NCBI GenBank assembly: GCA_025363795.1
Contig: JANYLE010000300.1
Span: 1 to 31,304 of the forward strand
Length of the DNA: 31,304 nt
Reading direction: 5' to 3'
Source: Mariniphaga sp.
GTDB lineage: Bacteria; Bacteroidota; Bacteroidia; Bacteroidales; Prolixibacteraceae
Numbering within the stretch: the first letter of the stretch is position 1; each line of letters opens with the position of its first letter. This document shows positions 3,385 to 26,331 of this stretch, piece by piece. Made by a program: the position numbers and the translations under genes. The notes beneath the pieces are model-generated. The model was given only the letters and a program-made list of their open reading frames with translations, made no database searches and was not told the origin of the DNA.

Positions 3385-4365
3385 TTAGTTTTCAGTTTTT
3401 ATCGATTGCTTTAATTTGACAGGTTGACACCAGGAATTCCTGCCATCATAGACACCATTCATAAGGCAGGTTATCTCGCCATTCTCAATTAATAATTGCG
3501 GCCTTTCTCTTCTTATACATTTTAAAACGGAATTGTCCGTTAACAGAATATCATGGTCATAGACGACCACCGGATTATATTTCTTCCAGCCTTTTACACC
3601 GTCTTCAGAATACCGGTGAATTCCCCATCTTTCATGACCACATACTCCCCCAACATTATCTTCGCAAATAATGTGAAACTGATGATTTGCTTTAAAAGCA
3701 TAGAAATCTTCCAGCTTACAATCTGGCCATATGTCATCATTTTTTATTTCATAGGGTCCTTTGTAAAAATCAGCTTCAGCAAGGTGGACTCTTAAATTCG
3801 CATCACGATAGAATAGCTTTACTTTCGATCCATCCAAAAGTATGGCCGGATTATTTGATTCTGAATTGATCAGTGGTTTATCAGAACGATGCCAGGGTCC
3901 GGAAATTGATTTTGATGAGGCATACCCAATTCGCCGCAGCAAAGCTTTTGATTTATCAGATGATGTAGTGAAATCACTTCCAATATAAAACAACACGAAC
4001 TCATTATCAATTTTGTGAATAGTAGGGTTATGAGCCATATTTGAATCCCAGAAGGAACTATCTCTTTCTCCGATTACAACCTCCTTAAATAAAAAGGGAC
4101 CTAAAGGTGATTTTGATGTTGCCCTCACGATTTCTGAATTTTGACGATAACCTTCAGGAAACGGGCCAGTCTTTTTCCAACGTGAAGCAAACAAATGGTA
4201 GGTCGAATCAACTTTTATCATTGACCCTCCCCAAATCCAATAGCCCTCCATTTTGAATCCACTATTTTTGGGCACCTTATCAAAGCCAAAAGCAATACTC
4301 TGACCCATTCCCGTCCTGGAAATGATTAATACTAAAAATACAGCAAGCAACTTCACTCGTATCAT
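3385..4365 (-). CDS. Secreted five-bladed beta-propeller glycoside hydrolase-like protein (GH43/32/68/117/130 superfamily)
   Basis: Signal peptide; YWIWGGSMI, YHLFASRW, SKSPLGPF, WDSNMAHNPTI, LEDFY and RRERPQLL match propeller GH-like proteins of Bacteroidota PULs. Confidence 0.6.
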   Translation of the reverse strand: MIRVKLLAVFLVLIISRTGMGQSIAFGFDKVPKNSGFKMEGYWIWGGSMIKVDSTYHLFASRWKKTGPFPEGYRQNSEIVRATSKSPLGPFLFKEVVIGERDSSFWDSNMAHNPTIHKIDNEFVLFYIGSDFTTSSDKSKALLRRIGYASSKSISGPWHRSDKPLINSESNNPAILLDGSKVKLFYRDANLRVHLAEADFYKGPYEIKNDDIWPDCKLEDFYAFKANHQFHIICEDNVGGVCGHERWGIHRYSEDGVKGWKKYNPVVVYDHDILLTDNSVLKCIRRERPQLLIENGEITCLMNGVYDGRNSWCQPVKLKQSIKTEN

Positions 4366-15985: not shown

Positions 15986-18900
15986 TTAAAAACCAACATT
16001 AATACCAATAGAGAACGACTTGTTCAGCGGATACAAATCGCTTGCATTTCCAATTCTTTCAGGGTCAAGACCTCTGAATTTTGTAAATGTTGCAAGGTTC
16101 TCTGCGGATGCGTAAATGCGTAAATTTTCAATAGACAGCTTCGACAATATTACCTTTGGAAGATTATATCCTAACTGAATGTTTTTAACGCGGATAAAGC
16201 TGAGGTCATCCAACCAGAAACTTGTCTGAGCAACGTTGTTTCCAAGACCGGCCAAACGTGGCCAAATACCTGTTGGATTGGAAACAGACCATGGATTGTT
16301 CCATTGTGTCCAGCTTGAAGCATAACGGGTTTGCGGAATATTCGTTGTGTTGTAACTGTTCAGCCAGTAGTCCTTGCGACCTGCAGAACCCTGCAACAAA
16401 ATATTAAGGTCAAAACCCTTCCATGAACAACTTGTCGTCAAACCAAAGTTGGTAGTTGGACGGTCACGTTGAATATTAGTATTGGCCACCTGGTCGTTTC
16501 CGTCAATCTTGCCGTCGCCATTGACGTCTTTAAGAAGAAGGTCACCTGGAGATGCTCCCTGGGGTGTTGCATTATAAACATCCTGCCATGTTTTTGCAAT
16601 ACCCTTATCCTTGTATCCGTAAACAAAATGGTAAGGCATATTTAAGTATACATAGCCCCTGTCGAGATATCCGCTCCAGCTTTCAAGTTGCGTTGTATTG
16701 TACGAAACGTTGAGGTTAACTGAATAATGGAATTTATTAATGTCATCTTTCCATGTGATATTGCCTTCAAAACCACGGTTACGAAGGTTGCCAATGTTAA
16801 CGCGTGGTGCAGTATAGGCACCGGTTAGCAGGTTCGACATCGAAGATGGCTGATTCATTCCTGAAGTCAGACGATCGTAATAGTCAAGCTCTGTTGTCAG
16901 ATGATTATTCAGGAAGCCAAGGTCCAAACCAGCATTAAACACTGTGGTCGTTTCCCACGAAAGAGACTGGTTTGTCATCTTCTGACTGATAAAACCGTTG
17001 ACAATAGTACCGCCAGTCATATAGGCACTTGCACCAAGTGTGGGCTGTTGTTCATAACGACCAACACCACTGTTGTTACCTAAACTACCATAAGAGACTC
17101 GGAACTTACCGCTGTTTAACCATCTTTCGGTATATTTTTTCAGAAAATCTTCCTGGGTAAAACGCCAGCCAAGAGCGGCTGATGGGAAAAAACCAAACTG
17201 GTGACCGGGAAGAAATTTCGAAGATCCGTCATAACGACAGTTTGCCTCAAATAAATATTTGTCGTAGGCCGAATAATTTAATCTTCCAATATAGGAACGA
17301 AGACCTTCAGTACCTGAATTACCGCCGGTTGTCTGGATTGTTGTCAACGCCGCGTCAATTTCATGAAGCGTCGGATAAAGACGGTCATTTCGCGATGCAG
17401 ATTCAAAACGGTCGTACCAGAATTCTTCACTATAAACGAACAAAGCACTTAAGTCGTGATGTTTGGCAATGGAAGTATGATAACTTAGACTGCTGTTCAG
17501 CTGTGTTTTATAACCTGTCTTTGTTTCGTTGCTAATTCCTGCGTTGGCGCCAACATAGACGCGTGATCCAAATGCCTTTGTCTGAAAATTATAGGCCGTG
17601 TTTGGAGTGGCAGCCGACCATAAGAATTGGTTGTAATAGTTCAGCGAATAATCAATGCGGGCCGTTAAACCCTTAATTGGTGACCAGTCGCCATAGATAC
17701 TTGTATTGGCTTCCTGACGGTTTTGATGATTGAGGTTATTGATATAGTTCGTATATGGATTATATGCCTGCGGATCTTCACTATAAGCCATTACTCCGCC
17801 ATAATTGCCAGTAACAGGATCGTAAGGAGTAATCCCTGAAATTGCATACTGCATATCATATCCGGCCGTATTTGTGGCTGTCGGATCGGTGAATCCCTGT
17901 GACCAGAAATAGGTGTATTTTGACCAGTTACCTGCAAACTTAACGCCAATGTTGATATTATCACGTACTTTATAGTCGTAATTGAAACGGGCATTGTATC
18001 GTGAAAAATCATTATTGATCTGTAAGCCCTTCTGATCCATAACTCCTATTGAGATATAGAAGTTTGATTTCTCATTGCTTCCTGAAACAGAAAGATCATA
18101 ATGCTGAACTTCACCATTCCGCATAATGATATTCCACCAGTCAGTGCTTGGATACTGTAAAGGATTGATCATTCCCAAAGCCATCCACTGGTCAATGGTA
18201 CCGTCTTTATAGGTGGAATTTGCACGAAGTGTATTGACGGCATTGGCGCGTTGTTCGAGCGTGAGTGCACGTGGATAGTCAGCCATAAAGTCATAGGCTT
18301 TTGTTGGAGTTTCACTTGCATATGAACTCGAAAAATTGATTGATGTTTTGCCCTGACCCTTACCCGATTTGGTAGTGATTAGTATAACGCCGTTCGCAGC
18401 ACGCGAACCATAAACAGCTGATGAAGCTGCATCTTTCAAAACGGAGATGCTTTCGACATCATTCATGTTTATCCTGTTGATGTCAACATCAGGCATACCA
18501 TCTACAACAACTAACGGAGATGCCGAGTTAATCGTACCCAATCCGCGGATGATCATTGTTGCCTGGTCGTTTCCTGCCATACCTGATGATTGGGTAACTG
18601 CAAGACCCGGAATCAAACCCGACATCCCTGAAGATAAATTCGTCAGCGACCGGCTGGTGAGCTTTTCATCAATTTTAACCGAAGAAACAGCACCGGTGAG
18701 ATTTACTTTCTTTTGGGTACCGAAACCAACGACAACAACCTCCTCAACGCCAATCACATCTGCAGCCATAACAACTGACAATGTTGTACTTGCACCTAAA
18801 GTTATCTCCTGGGGAATTAACCCCACAAAAGAAAACACCAAAGTTTTGGCATTTGCAGGCACAGAGATCGAAAACTTCCCATCGAAATCAGTGATTGTTC

Positions 18901-23600: not shown

Positions 23601-24764
23601 AACTGGAAACCCGAGACAATCAAAAAGCCTTACCATTATGCAACGGGCAATGCGATTGATAACGGGTACATTACGATTACTGTTGAAAATGAAGGTCCGG
23701 GAATTAAACCGTCAGACCTTCCGAATATCTTCGATCGGTTTTACCAGGCGCCGGGACAAATTGCCGGTACGGGCATCGGATTGCATCTTTGCAGCGAATA
23801 CATTATCATGCATCATGGCCAGATAGAAGTTTTTACGGGTGAAAATATGGGCGCATCCTTTTTTGTCCGTCTCCCGATATCGCAGGAAGAAATCGAAAAA
23901 GGGGTTCAGGGAGAACTATTCCAGACTTCCGTCTGTGAAGCGCGCGAAATTCATTCGTTACCTGACCCTCACGCTGTTTTGAAGGCTGAAAAAGAGATCA
24001 CCATTCTTGTTGTTGAAGACAACAAAGAAATGCAAAGATTTCTGAACACCATATTAAGCGACACTTACAATGTGGTGACGGCCGATAATGGGAATGAGGG
24101 GATCGTCAAAGTTGGTGAATCGGACCCCGATCTTGTAATTACTGACGTGATGATGCCCGGAATAAATGGAATTGAGTTTTGCCGGATCCTGAAAACAGAT
24201 ATCAATACCAGTCATATACCCATTCTGATGCTAACCGCTCTTTCGTCAGTTGAGAGCCAGCTGGAAGGATTCGAAACCGGTGCCGATGATTATATTGTGA
24301 AACCATTTGATGACCGGATACTGACACTGAGAATTCGCAATTTGCTCGATTCGAGAAGAATATTGCGTGAGAAATTTACAAATTCACATGGTGAATGGCG
24401 CGAAGCGATGCGAAAACTTCAACCCGATCGTGAATTACTCGAAAAGGCAACCTCAATCATTGAGCATCACATTACGGATTTGGTATTTACAGTCGATATG
24501 CTGGCTTCGGAATTAAACCTAAGCAGAAGTTCACTGCACCGCAAACTAAAGGCGCTAACCAACCAGTCGGCGACCGAATTTATTAAATTCGTGAAGATTA
24601 ATAGGTCAATCATGCTTATTGAGGATGGCATGACGAATATCGATGAGATCTGCTTTAAAGTCGGGTTCAATTCACACTCTTATTATTCGATGTGCTTCAA
24701 AAAACAACTTGGACAAACACCTTCTGAATACATCAACCGGATAAAAAGGGAATCAAAAGAATAA
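20634..24764 (+). CDS. Hybrid two-component system sensor-regulator (PUL activator)
   Basis: Beta-propeller sensor repeats, Y_Y_Y domain (YRLTGYNPKW...PPGNYTFEV), TM helix, FFTNISHEFRTPLTLI, NLLSNAIKYT, GTGIGL, receiver DVMMPG, AraC HTH. Confidence 0.96.
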   Translation: MYLNFLSRSVIKSSRLLIAPLFLFQLILLLLIRNPAYAMPDDLKIKQISPEGGFTFEALSSICEDKYGFIWFASNNGAYRYNSVETVKFINSPDDKTSLPGNYIRSLYLDMKHELWISTDHGLSMFDYQCECFKRYQFHDAEGNPKGLNVYQIFQTADSSYWMIDSSGFSHIDFKTNTVSYLKIPDAQKNDLIRIAAKSEKDERIWLGGTNGGVYYCDPPYQKIVFFSHSRDQNVIAILPDGDKIWIGYDWGGADLFTRQGVLTDHFDDKIEGKNKIPSSRVRTIFKYKNEIWLGTFKGLVRVNENGIEVVEKENYTGLTNNSIYQIYRDSRNGIWIGTWSGGLGYINEWSNNFEHFKRESNNNSLSDNVISSFEETEDGKIIIATEEGHLNYLDRSNHQITDVRIKGPGGIVNHIKTLCIDKNGTLWIGTFASGVFYKLKGAKDFQKFNLIDDFIEQFYDIIGTGEGLWFASSIRGLFYYDYQKRQVKHYSLNNTDPGSLSSNAVRTLLEDSKGNIWIGSGNGLNRKDKGSERFVRFFYNPDEKNRISSNNIYSLFEDSKQNIWIGTAGGGVTIYDPKTTIFSQLSKKDGLPGNDVHGILEDNTGVIWMSTENGISAYSPATKKFRNFDYNDGLQGNQFNPGAAFKARNGDLFFGGSNGFTRFDPAQIKGNPVAPKAYITGIEINNQAANQMSDPTLLKQSIITRDHLELNYNENSLRFTFVANNFLLPQKNRFKYRLTGYNPKWIEIQRDNEATFTKIPPGNYTFEVKAANNDGKWNDTPTQLQITIHPPIWRTVYAYIFYLLILLVIFYFVQREFLIRHRLKNSILHERIQRENEEKLHQLKLHFFTNISHEFRTPLTLILSPLSLLKKKLSGQEEPLEHLTMIENNANRLLRLVNQILDIRKIELGKMDFQPQHFDIVALCQEVFQCFSLQDNDRKISFNFESDFSSLFIMIEPDKIDKLIFNLLSNAIKYTPDEGVIRLSIKSPNWKPETIKKPYHYATGNAIDNGYITITVENEGPGIKPSDLPNIFDRFYQAPGQIAGTGIGLHLCSEYIIMHHGQIEVFTGENMGASFFVRLPISQEEIEKGVQGELFQTSVCEAREIHSLPDPHAVLKAEKEITILVVEDNKEMQRFLNTILSDTYNVVTADNGNEGIVKVGESDPDLVITDVMMPGINGIEFCRILKTDINTSHIPILMLTALSSVESQLEGFETGADDYIVKPFDDRILTLRIRNLLDSRRILREKFTNSHGEWREAMRKLQPDRELLEKATSIIEHHITDLVFTVDMLASELNLSRSSLHRKLKALTNQSATEFIKFVKINRSIMLIEDGMTNIDEICFKVGFNSHSYYSMCFKKQLGQTPSEYINRIKRESKE

Positions 24765-24773
24765 ATTAATTGA

Positions 24774-24823
24774 CCATCCTGCGGCAGGGATTGGCAGAGA
24801 TGGCCGCCCTGTCGTCTCTGCAA
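24774..24823. other. GC-rich tandem hairpins after the HTCS stop (possible atypical terminator or REP-like element)
   Basis: CCATCCTG/CAGGGATTGG and GCAGAGATGGC/GTCGTCTCTGC arms; no U-tract on either strand. Confidence 0.3.
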
Positions 24824-25079
24824 CCCAAAAGAATCAACACCACGAATAATGTTTCACAAACAGCGTATTATCAAGACTCAATATAAATAATAAAAATTGA
24901 CAAGCTTGAAATAACAATTAAGTCAGTAAGCATTAAGGATTAAGTCTTAATGAATATTTTTTTTAAATAAAATGCATAATTGATGAACCTTTAATTTTTT
25001 TTAGCGTATAAGAAAGCATGTTCACCTAAAACATATTAATCAAACGCTGTTTTTATACACTAAACTAAATTTAATCGTC

Positions 25080-25817
25080 ATGTCAATGAATTTATCAACA
25101 AGCCGCGCGTCGAATGTAGCCAATCTCGAATCGCTCATTTCCTCTTGTTCAGGTTTTGGAGAATCTTTTAATCCATCACAACCCACGATTACAATTGAAG
25201 CAATGAAAGATATTTTAGCCGAAGGGAAAAATGCCTTACGGTTATTAAATATCGCGATACCGTATTCTAAAAATGCAAAAACTGCAAGGGATAATGGATT
25301 TAGTTTATTGTACAAACTCGCTACGCGGGTCGTAAATGCCTTTGAGGTAAATATACACAACGAACAATCGCAGGCACAGTTCCGGTCACTAAACCGTGCG
25401 TTGCAGGGAACAAAACTCAAATCGAAGAAAGCCCCTGCAGTAAAAACAGAAACAGACCCCGAGGTCAAAGAGAATGTAAAGCACAAATCAGATTTTGATA
25501 ACCGACTCGAGTCATTCGATAGTTTTATCCAGTTTTTAGCCACTTTTCCGGCTTATGCACCCAACGAACCCGAATTGACAGTGGCAGGTCTCACAAACTT
25601 TTACAATGACTTAAAAAATAAAGTTTCGGACGAAGTCAACGCGGAAACCGCATTAAAAAACGCACGCATTAACCGGGATGTAACATTGTATACACCCGTA
25701 ACCGGATTAGCGTTAGTGGGTAAAAATGCAAAGAGCTACGTTAAATCGGCTTATGGACCCAATAGCCCGCAGTATAAGCAAATCTCAAAATTAAAATTCA
25801 CCACTCATAAAATATAG
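25080..25817 (+). CDS. Uncharacterised, predicted all-alpha-helical cytoplasmic protein (245 aa)
   Basis: Long ORF with its own terminator and no signal peptide or TM segment. Blocks SNVANLESLI..FNPS, YAPNEPEL, NARINRD..LY, KSYVKSAYG..SPQYKQI resemble, from memory, a widespread Bacteroidota hypothetical family. Confidence 0.8.
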   Translation: MSMNLSTSRASNVANLESLISSCSGFGESFNPSQPTITIEAMKDILAEGKNALRLLNIAIPYSKNAKTARDNGFSLLYKLATRVVNAFEVNIHNEQSQAQFRSLNRALQGTKLKSKKAPAVKTETDPEVKENVKHKSDFDNRLESFDSFIQFLATFPAYAPNEPELTVAGLTNFYNDLKNKVSDEVNAETALKNARINRDVTLYTPVTGLALVGKNAKSYVKSAYGPNSPQYKQISKLKFTTHKI

Positions 25818-25866
25818 CAATCGGTCGTTTCAATTCTAAAGGTAGATTTTTTTGGTTGGTTTGGTT

Positions 25867-25907
25867 AGAACTGCGGTTATCAGTCAGATGGTCGCAGTTC
25901 TTTTTTT
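25867..25907 (+). terminator. Rho-independent terminator of the 245-aa gene
   Basis: AGAACTGCG (25867-25875) / CGCAGTTCT (25893-25901), extendable by GTTATC/GATGGT with wobbles, followed by a T-run to 25907. Confidence 0.8.
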
Positions 25908-25929
25908 GTCGCACTAATAATCTTCAACA

Positions 25930-26142
25930 TTATAAATTTGTTTGAAAAACCATTATGACTGAATAACCAGCTATGATGAGGCAATAGATAAGGACAATTA
26001 CACAATAATCAGGGACGATGAGGCAATATACATGGACGATGAATGAATAACCAGGCGTGATGAGACAATAGACAAGGACAATTACACAATAACCAGGCAC
26101 GATGAGGGAATAGATGGACACGATGAATGAATAACCAGGCAC
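25930..26142 (-). CDS. Doubtful 70-aa very hydrophobic heptad-repeat peptide overlapping the array
   Basis: Only frame of six that is open across the whole array; Tyr and Ile in every heptad; GTG start only; no promoter seen. Confidence 0.25.
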   Translation of the reverse strand: MPGYSFIVSIYSLIVPGYCVIVLVYCLITPGYSFIVHVYCLIVPDYCVIVLIYCLIIAGYSVIMVFQTNL

Positions 26143-26184
26143 GATGAGGGAATAGATAAGGACGATGACCCAATAAATAGTCGC
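25954..26184. repeat. Tandem array of 11 x 21-nt degenerate units with 42/84-nt higher-order periodicity
   Basis: Units start at 25954 + 21n; AATA is invariant at unit positions 9-12; unit classes Z=GATGAATGAATAACCAGGCAC, X=GATGAGGSAATAGATAAGGAC, Y=AATTACACAATAAYCAGGSAC in order Z X Y X Z X Y X Z X plus one diverged unit. Confidence 0.95.
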
Positions 26185-26331
26185 AAATCTTCATCAAATA
26201 GCCTGGGTGAATGGGTAAACTTCCCGGTGCAACTTTAGCTGCCAAAATCTGTTATTATAATTGCTTACAGATCGTAAGCAATAAAACAATTGGATTGTTC
26301 CGCTAATCAATGTTAAGGAACAAAATATTCC

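Follow-up and report, generated by a model that had tools for sequence, protein, structure and literature searches.

A small helical-protein gene and its private 21-nucleotide-phased array form a widespread accessory module in Bacteroidota

Why should a bacterial chromosome keep a row of short, strictly phased direct repeats behind a gene of no recognised family? The question is raised by a locus of Mariniphaga sp. (Bacteroidota; Prolixibacteraceae), where positions 1 to 31,304 of contig JANYLE010000300.1 (assembly GCA_025363795.1) were analysed; this stretch of 31,304 nucleotides (nt) is called the window below. Between a sensor gene and lysC it carries the gene of a 245-residue protein of an unnamed family, here called family A, then a hairpin, then eleven tandem units of 21 nt. 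The segment (positions 24765-26258) represents an accessory module that is widespread in Bacteroidota, in which a family A gene is followed, usually after a conserved hairpin, by a 21-nt-phased array of its own. An initial annotation, made from the letters of the window, had picked out the cassette and suggested that protein and array form a functional unit, provided that homologs are repeatedly flanked by arrays whose periods are multiples of seven.

Arrays are tied to family A genes

Such flanking recurs at each scale sampled. The genome of the window, an assembly of 514 contigs and 3.84 Mb that is 78% complete, holds ten family A paralogs at 30-55% identity, and all ten are followed by a 21/42-nt array, usually 87-169 nt past the stop codon. 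The same genome contains 78 loci with periods of 21n and 21 more with periods near 41, and these ~99 arrays stand against some 3,000 open reading frames (ORFs), so that any given gene would be followed by an array by chance in only a few percent of cases (~3%). In a sample of 401 genomes from the phylum, an array lies downstream in 9 of the 10 full-length family A loci. A pattern scan of one genome per species returned 395 loci, the best 80 of which provide the statistics: an array lies within 400 nt downstream of 66 of the 76 genes with enough flanking sequence, at a median gap of 80 nt, and upstream of just 3 of 77. Seen against the background of about 3%, this is not the lack of enrichment that the initial annotation had named as the outcome that would speak against a link. 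The conserved linkage supports the proposal that gene and array are a functional unit.

The downstream arrays also resemble one another in form. The period is 21 nt in 59 of the 66, 42 nt in 6 and 19 nt in 1; the arrays have a median of 6 copies, range from 5 to 27 units and show about 70% unit-to-unit matches. A coding role for the repeats was considered and rejected, as no strand or frame is open with any consistency across family A arrays, and in several of them every one of the six frames is interrupted by stops.

Arrays persist as their sequence is renewed

How do gene and array change together? The orthologous locus, with sensor gene, family A gene, array and lysC, was found on three metagenomic contigs. 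An ortholog at 92% protein identity has the same type of unit in a different order and number, and in one at 74% the units are rewritten and the GAATAG-type core alone is kept. Across the family, the initial annotation had proposed looking for co-variation of unit sequence with the protein tree, and this was found. Array 10-mers are shared by 23/23 pairs at 90% protein identity or more, 36/49 at 80-90%, 47/143 at 70-80%, 63/997 (6%) at 60-70% and only 2/85 below 50%, nearly always on the same strand relative to the gene. Because sharing drops with protein identity in this way, the array sequence turns over faster than the protein while the feature itself is retained. Gene and array are thus inherited together, the array persisting through the replacement of its sequence, a pattern that argues for selection on array presence and phasing, with a short conserved core.

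Some arrays occur without a gene. Clustering the 99 arrays of the window genome by shared 11-mers gave 20 multi-member clusters, many of which pair one gene-linked array with at least one array that lacks an adjacent family A gene. The window array has such an orphan copy on another contig (C275:7159-7496), 84% identical, with 16 units and unrelated flanking genes; the homology spans 18 nt of leader, the array and ~60-70 nt of the tail that follows it, and the invariant unit positions are the same in both. Each array type is present in 1-5 copies per genome (0-4 orphans).

Parts of the window copy

The family A gene (25080-25817, + strand) is preceded by an AT-rich leader (24765-25079, +) that starts directly after the stop codon of the sensor gene (24762-24764) and forms the left edge of the module. 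Behind the gene stands a terminator-like hairpin with a T-run (25867-25908, +; stem AACTGCGGT.../...GCAGTT), whose stem-loop at 25867-25901 has 15 pairs and an RNA folding energy of -18.6 kcal/mol (z = -5.0 against shuffles). The array (25955-26185, strand not assigned) starts ~46 nt past the T-run and consists of 11 contiguous units in strict register, with super-periods of 42 and 84 nt; Tandem Repeats Finder reports periods of 21, 42 and 84 over 25955-26177. All 11 units are identical at positions 1, 2 and 4 (A, T, A) and at 8-11 (AATA), and a phased two-unit pattern matches eight times in the window and not once in 100 shuffles of it. A non-repeated tail (26186-26258, strand likewise not assigned) travels with the array and makes the right edge of the module; it is conserved in the ortholog loci L042 and L044 and in a gene-less remnant, L179.

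Every part of the self-contained cassette described in the initial annotation is therefore in place: the gene of a basic helical 245-residue protein, the terminator-like hairpin and the array 46 nt further on, between sensor gene and lysC. Its statement that transposase, integrase, reverse transcriptase and cas genes are absent is confirmed for the ORFs between sensor gene and lysC, among which there is no recombinase either. One correction concerns the leader. The region is AT-rich, and the exact TAnnTTTG box, the -7 promoter box of Bacteroidota, is absent from 24765-25079; one match, TAAATTTG, lies at 25933-25940 (+), with 15 nt between it and the array. The match may have arisen by chance, and it is not kept in L042, the ortholog locus at 92% identity. 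More widely, a TAnnTTTG box lies within 150 nt upstream of the gene in 34 of 68 family A members, and -7 boxes ahead of family A arrays show no enrichment (4/68).

The array is not of the clustered regularly interspaced short palindromic repeat (CRISPR) type, since its units adjoin one another with no spacers between them and cas ORFs are absent nearby. Rfam gave no match for the cassette or for eight related loci. In all four sediment runs, some metagenome contigs jump over exactly 126 nt, or six units, of the array (window 25993-26120); real variation in copy number or an effect of assembly may account for this. The contigs of these runs also include a second strain, ~9% divergent in the 3' part of the gene.

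The hairpin recurs with the module. Its stem, with a T-rich tail, is present six times in the window genome, five times after family A genes and once before the orphan array on C224, which forms a pair with C19 that has both hairpin and array in common. In other genomes the same hairpin is found in ~30 of 68 loci, where changes on one side of the stem are compensated on the other (GG/CC to AA/TT or C-G to T-A, for example), although a good T-run does not follow it in every locus. Some family A arrays are composed of the hairpin-arm motif itself. The hairpin may be a conserved terminator only or a recognition element as well.

A large family without a name

What is the protein? The initial annotation had likened it to a widespread uncharacterised family of Bacteroidota, and the searches bear this out. 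An exhaustive profile search places 3,095 representative clusters (50% identity) in family A at E <=1e-3 and 1,378 at 1e-30; nearly all are 240-260 residues long, and no fusions are seen among the best 150 matches. The distribution is patchy, with the family in 12 of the 401 genomes of the phylum sample. A cultured species, Breznakibacter xylanolyticus (DSM 6779, locus L085), is among the carriers. The window protein has no match in Pfam, NCBIfam, PHROGs, PADLOC or, by profile search, the PDB sequences. Foldseek against the PDB gave nothing below E = 0.1, and searches of the AFDB clusters and ESM Atlas returned only family A itself or unnamed proteins. VIA-align of the fold gave generic helical bundles only (LemA, chemoreceptor sensor domains, talin rods, Avd) at Z <=10, an uninformative level for helical proteins. 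Sequence and fold searches of the PDB found no solved structural relative. As the protein maps to no known family, the other outcome that the initial annotation had named, a known family whose function needs no array, did not occur. Among the open-access texts searched, no publication on family A or its array linkage was found.

DUF6261 (PF19775) was considered as the identity of family A and rejected, as there is no Pfam match and hhalign between the paralog sets gives a probability of 0.4%. A language-model neighbour score of 0.82 to DUF6261 is a lead only, and the shape search returned no DUF6261 cluster.

The window protein is basic (pI 9.48; 32 K+R against 23 D+E), as is the family as a whole (median pI 9.27). 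Residues 105-137 form a Lys-rich linker, and the C-terminal 31 residues include seven K+R and no acidic residue. An AlphaFold2 model built with 36 homologs is all-helical (predicted local distance difference test, pLDDT, 85.4; predicted template modelling score, pTM, 0.75) and has two similar halves (helices 5-108 and 127-233) around a disordered joint at 112-134. Invariant in the family are R70, P161-N162-E163, R199, K218 and F240.

The module as an insertion ahead of a host hairpin

The window copy lies downstream of a hybrid two-component (sugar) sensor gene and upstream of lysC. None of 17 other species of the genus has a family A gene or array upstream of lysC. In three loci of the same genus (L178, L180, L182) the orthologous sensor gene is followed by 12-24 nt, a host hairpin (GCTTAC-AGATC-GTAAGC) and then lysC. 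Homology between the window and these genomes stops at 24764-24775 and resumes at 26259-26264. Since three congeners have a clean empty site, 24765-26258 is a 1.49-kb insertion between stop codon and hairpin. The hairpin of the window, ATTGCTTAC-AGATC-GTAAGCAAT (26260-26282, strand not assigned), was there before, lies outside the module and marks the insertion point. The remnant L179 (G405:C59), from the same genus, has no protein gene; all that it retains, ~150 nt upstream of lysC, is a degenerate array with the tail. Copies of family A range from 0 to 10 per genome within the genus. The module is accessory. Inverted terminal repeats and a clear target-site duplication were both absent from the one junction inspected by eye.

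The genes that precede the module are diverse. At 72 loci the upstream neighbours belong to 62 Pfam families, about ten of them being restriction enzymes of types I, II, IIG and III, and in 65 of the 72 the neighbour is co-oriented with the family A gene.

Carriage in integron-like cassettes

Could the module travel as cargo? In Paludibacter-type loci the array is followed by an element of ~150 nt with RYYYAAC-like start and GTTAGGC-type (GTTRRRY) end cores. A complete Paludibacter chromosome (a metagenome-assembled genome) contains 37 copies of it, of which ~30 share a strand and fall within 60 kb, and each copy is preceded by one or a few co-oriented genes. The region is an integron-like array of ~60 kb and ~30 co-oriented cassettes (G401:C1:1640001-1712000, loci L173-L176). 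At its head stands a co-oriented Xer/IntI-like tyrosine recombinase of 555 residues that scores above the cut-off of NF040815 and reaches 217.7 bits with TIGR02249, against a cut-off of 265. Among the genes of these cassettes are those of an HNH protein and of two type I restriction-modification sets, and both family A genes of the chromosome close type I restriction-modification cassettes. In 19 of 20 Paludibacter-type loci the module comes last before the attC-like site, and no such site lies just upstream in any. Read as a structured RNA, the 150-nt repeat yields a weak consensus fold; that reading was rejected, and for this reason the repeat is taken as a DNA recombination site. The module rides in integron-like cassettes and adjoins restriction systems.

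Cassette carriage is one travel route and not a defining property, because the genome of the window has no flanking attC-like element common to its arrays and no integron integrase above the cut-off. The window copy is itself without an attC-like site. In a Prolixibacteraceae-type group (L093, L097, L105, L111) a different conserved element of ~250 nt, which has an imperfect inverted repeat, follows the array (~3400-3700 in each locus); one complete genome has just 2 copies of it, so that it does not act as a cassette site there. Orphan arrays, the empty site in sister species and the integron-like carriage in Paludibacter all go beyond what the initial annotation had described. As a side observation, the Paludibacter locus L174 has a third 21-nt array, without a family A gene, at ~18360-18564 (reverse-complement coordinates 33437-33641 of the joined region), the units of which carry the hairpin-arm motif AACTGCGGTT.

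Resemblance to known systems

The module is most like a centromere or iteron array beside the gene of its binding protein, or a type III toxin-antitoxin system in reversed order, and it fails defining features of each. In F sopB-sopC, P1 repA-incA and F repE-incC, centromere-like or iteron arrays lie beside the gene of the binding protein. The module shares with them a short direct-repeat array directly downstream of the gene of a specific protein, repeats that are private, and a spacing near two helical turns; its 11 units of 21 nt beside a gene agree with the tandem 17-22-bp repeats in helical phase of iteron replicons. Unlike such replicons, it is chromosomal, lies between a sensor gene and lysC in a synteny kept in relatives, and has 10 copies in one genome. 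No Rep initiator family was found in Pfam, NCBIfam or the PDB profile search, and the fold searches gave generic helical bundles only; family A is a helical bundle without a match to the Rep, ParB or ribbon-helix-helix families. Partition loci differ as well, as no NTPase of the ParA, ParM or TubZ type lies beside the window copy, whose neighbours are the sensor gene and lysC. No partition ATPase is among the commonest of the 62 Pfam families of upstream neighbours at the 72 loci.

Type III toxin-antitoxin systems (toxIN, cptIN, tenpIN, abiQ/antiQ) likewise consist of a protein gene and a direct-repeat array split by a terminator-like hairpin, and have in common with the module private, fast-evolving pairs, a patchy multi-copy spread, and defence or mobile contexts. 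In them, however, the array comes before the toxin gene, whereas family A arrays come after (66/76 downstream, 3/77 upstream). Type III antitoxin repeats are 34-45 nt long and present in 2-6 copies, in contrast to the 5-27 copies of family A units, which measure 21 nt, or 42 nt when paired. Family A is all-helical and not a ToxN-type endoribonuclease, with no Pfam or PADLOC match.

Closer in phylogeny are the BrickBuilt/PgRS elements of Porphyromonas gingivalis, repeat-filled MITEs (miniature transposable elements that have inverted repeats) with ~19 copies of one sequence per genome and IS5-type inverted ends, which are not tied to a gene (PMC4596501). They too are intergenic Bacteroidota minisatellites (of 23 and 41 nt) with a non-repeated leader and tail and dispersed copies. 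Each family A array type, by contrast, is private to one gene, with 0-4 orphans, and no inverted ends were seen by eye. For the cassettes, the nearest comparison is the defence cassettes of sedentary chromosomal integrons (bioRxiv 10.1101/2024.07.02.601686). The likeness is limited to Paludibacter, where the module sits inside co-oriented cassettes that end in an attC-like repeat, beside type I restriction genes; even there it is the cargo of a cassette and not a feature of it.

What could the array do?

We consider it plausible, at slightly less than even chances, that the family A protein binds its own phased array as double-stranded DNA. Two turns of B-DNA measure 21 nt. The protein would recognise a short core motif in each unit (in the window AT.A...AATA) and load side by side along one face of the DNA, giving a nucleoprotein block at the 3' end of a transcription unit or cassette, and orphan arrays that carry this motif would offer the protein extra landing sites in trans. 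Such a block could serve module maintenance, defence or local regulation. Binding to double-stranded DNA is favoured because the 21-nt period is common to unrelated proteins and unrelated array sequences, because the arrays lack promoter boxes (4/68), because a terminator-like hairpin often separates gene and array, and because orphan arrays sit in unrelated, arbitrary contexts. The basic pI, the Lys-rich linker and C-terminal tail and the invariant R70, R199 and K218 make the protein a plausible binder of nucleic acids. Several observations weigh against this proposal. In the predicted fold, an elongated helical bundle of a generic kind, no DNA-binding motif is recognised. Phasing is imperfect in about half of the arrays, 29 of 62 being free of indels, and the arrays linked to DUF6261 genes have a period of 41 nt and not 42, which weakens a pure helical-phase argument. 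The co-divergence of gene and array could come from physical linkage alone. Core 8-mers of the array are not enriched upstream of the array's own gene (10/43 loci, against 6/43 and 9/41 in controls), so that simple autoregulation is unsupported.

Could the array act as RNA instead? In a pair resembling type III toxin-antitoxin systems, or an autoregulatory ribonucleoprotein, the array would be transcribed by read-through past a leaky hairpin or from a start of its own, the 21-/42-nt repeat RNA would neutralise or regulate the protein, and private repeats would avoid cross-talk. We regard this as unlikely, even though much of the genomic distribution suits it: the arrays are private, fast-diverging and gene-linked, their similarity among relatives is nearly always on the gene strand, and the spread is patchy and multi-copy (12/401 genomes; 0-10 copies in the genus). 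The integron-like cassettes and restriction neighbours are contexts in which toxin-antitoxin and defence genes are often found, and orphan arrays would parallel orphan antitoxins. The 42-nt super-period falls inside the unit range of known type III antitoxins, half of the genes (34/68) have a promoter box of their own upstream, and the -7 box 15 nt before the window array could supply a start. Across the family, however, promoter boxes are not enriched before arrays, and the order is the reverse of that in type III systems, with the array after gene and hairpin. The all-helical protein is unlike ToxN, AbiQ, CptN and TenpN and matched no PADLOC model. A protein-specific RNA fold would not predict that the 21-nt period also accompanies unrelated protein families, and the same chromosomal place is held across species at 74% protein identity.

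That last point bears equally on the idea that the module is a new non-autonomous or self-mobilising element which targets the gap that separates a gene's stop codon from its terminal hairpin (terminator or attC), with array and tail as an end structure or by-product of movement and the protein as a factor of mobility or maintenance. The clean empty site, with insertion exactly between stop codon and host hairpin, is what such an element would leave, and it agrees with the co-orientation of 65/72 upstream neighbours and with the 19/20 Paludibacter-type modules that come last ahead of an attC and have none directly before them. Elsewhere, array and tail, or hairpin and array, recur as duplicates that lack the gene, as non-autonomous copies would; L179 retains only its degenerate array and tail, and repeat-filled MITEs with 23- and 41-nt units are known from Porphyromonas gingivalis (PMC4596501). 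Yet the protein shows no recognisable features of a recombinase, transposase or nuclease, the one junction inspected by eye has neither terminal inverted repeats nor a clear target-site duplication, each array type numbers just 1-5 copies per genome, and orthologs have held the same site over considerable divergence. We therefore judge it decidedly unlikely. Less probable again is that protein and array have no direct interplay, the arrays arising across the genome as by-products of slippage or recombination that 3' intergenic DNA tolerates, and the link being inherited from an ancestral cassette. Most of the ~99 arrays of the window genome do not adjoin family A, arrays also lie beside ordinary genes, and linkage alone would give co-divergence. 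Neutral leftovers are expected to decay, however, and not to renew, whereas here the array is retained in 87% of loci despite full turnover of its sequence, and across paralogs at only 30-45% identity. Its placement is one-sided, 66 downstream against 3 upstream, and core positions are invariant within arrays and kept between orthologs.

With ~3,100 clusters and no entry in a domain library, family A has one of the strictest gene-repeat linkages known to us outside CRISPR and type III toxin-antitoxin systems. If the protein does read its array, each paralog would make a natural orthogonal address pair of protein and DNA (or RNA), and this would matter for chromosome biology, for the biology of integrons and defence islands in Bacteroidota and as a toolkit of specific binders.

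Other array-linked genes in the same genome

Family A is not alone in keeping arrays. At least four further unrelated families of 200-310 residues are tied to arrays in the window genome. One has ten members with a helical N-terminus, the longer of which also have an end like CarboxypepD_reg (C191, C220, C225, C245, C248, C280, C78, C81, C325; loci L027-L029, L037), and nine of the ten flank an array with a 21n period, for the most part 137-378 nt upstream; orphan copies of several such arrays lie at other places in the genome. The seven DUF6261 (PF19775) genes (C38, C209, C300, C302, C316, C465, C514; loci L030-L032, L045, L052, L056, L058-L061) each have an array with a period of ~41 nt 36-256 nt upstream, and in other genomes a 41/42-nt array lies upstream at 3 of 8 DUF6261 loci. 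A third family has three members. In the fourth, a helical-Fn3 protein is divergent from a regulator of the LuxR/GerE type, and a 21/42-nt array occupies the intergenic stretch between the two genes (L035, C122:6932-8854; L036, C338:4383-6409). Kinship among the five array-linked families was considered and rejected, with hhalign probabilities <=1.1%. Arrays adjoin ordinary genes in this genome as well.

These families raise the tentative possibility of an undescribed class in Bacteroidota, made up of at least five unrelated small-protein families in which each copy has a private 21- or 41-nt array. Together with orphan arrays, its members might be addressable, protein-marked DNA sites that are carried as cargo of integron-like cassettes and defence islands.

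The arrays also have a practical consequence, as they break short-read assemblies. Many contigs of the window genome start or end inside 21/41-nt arrays (for example C135, C358, C367, C426, C450, C466, C287 and C406), and the arrays are a likely cause of its fragmentation into 514 contigs.

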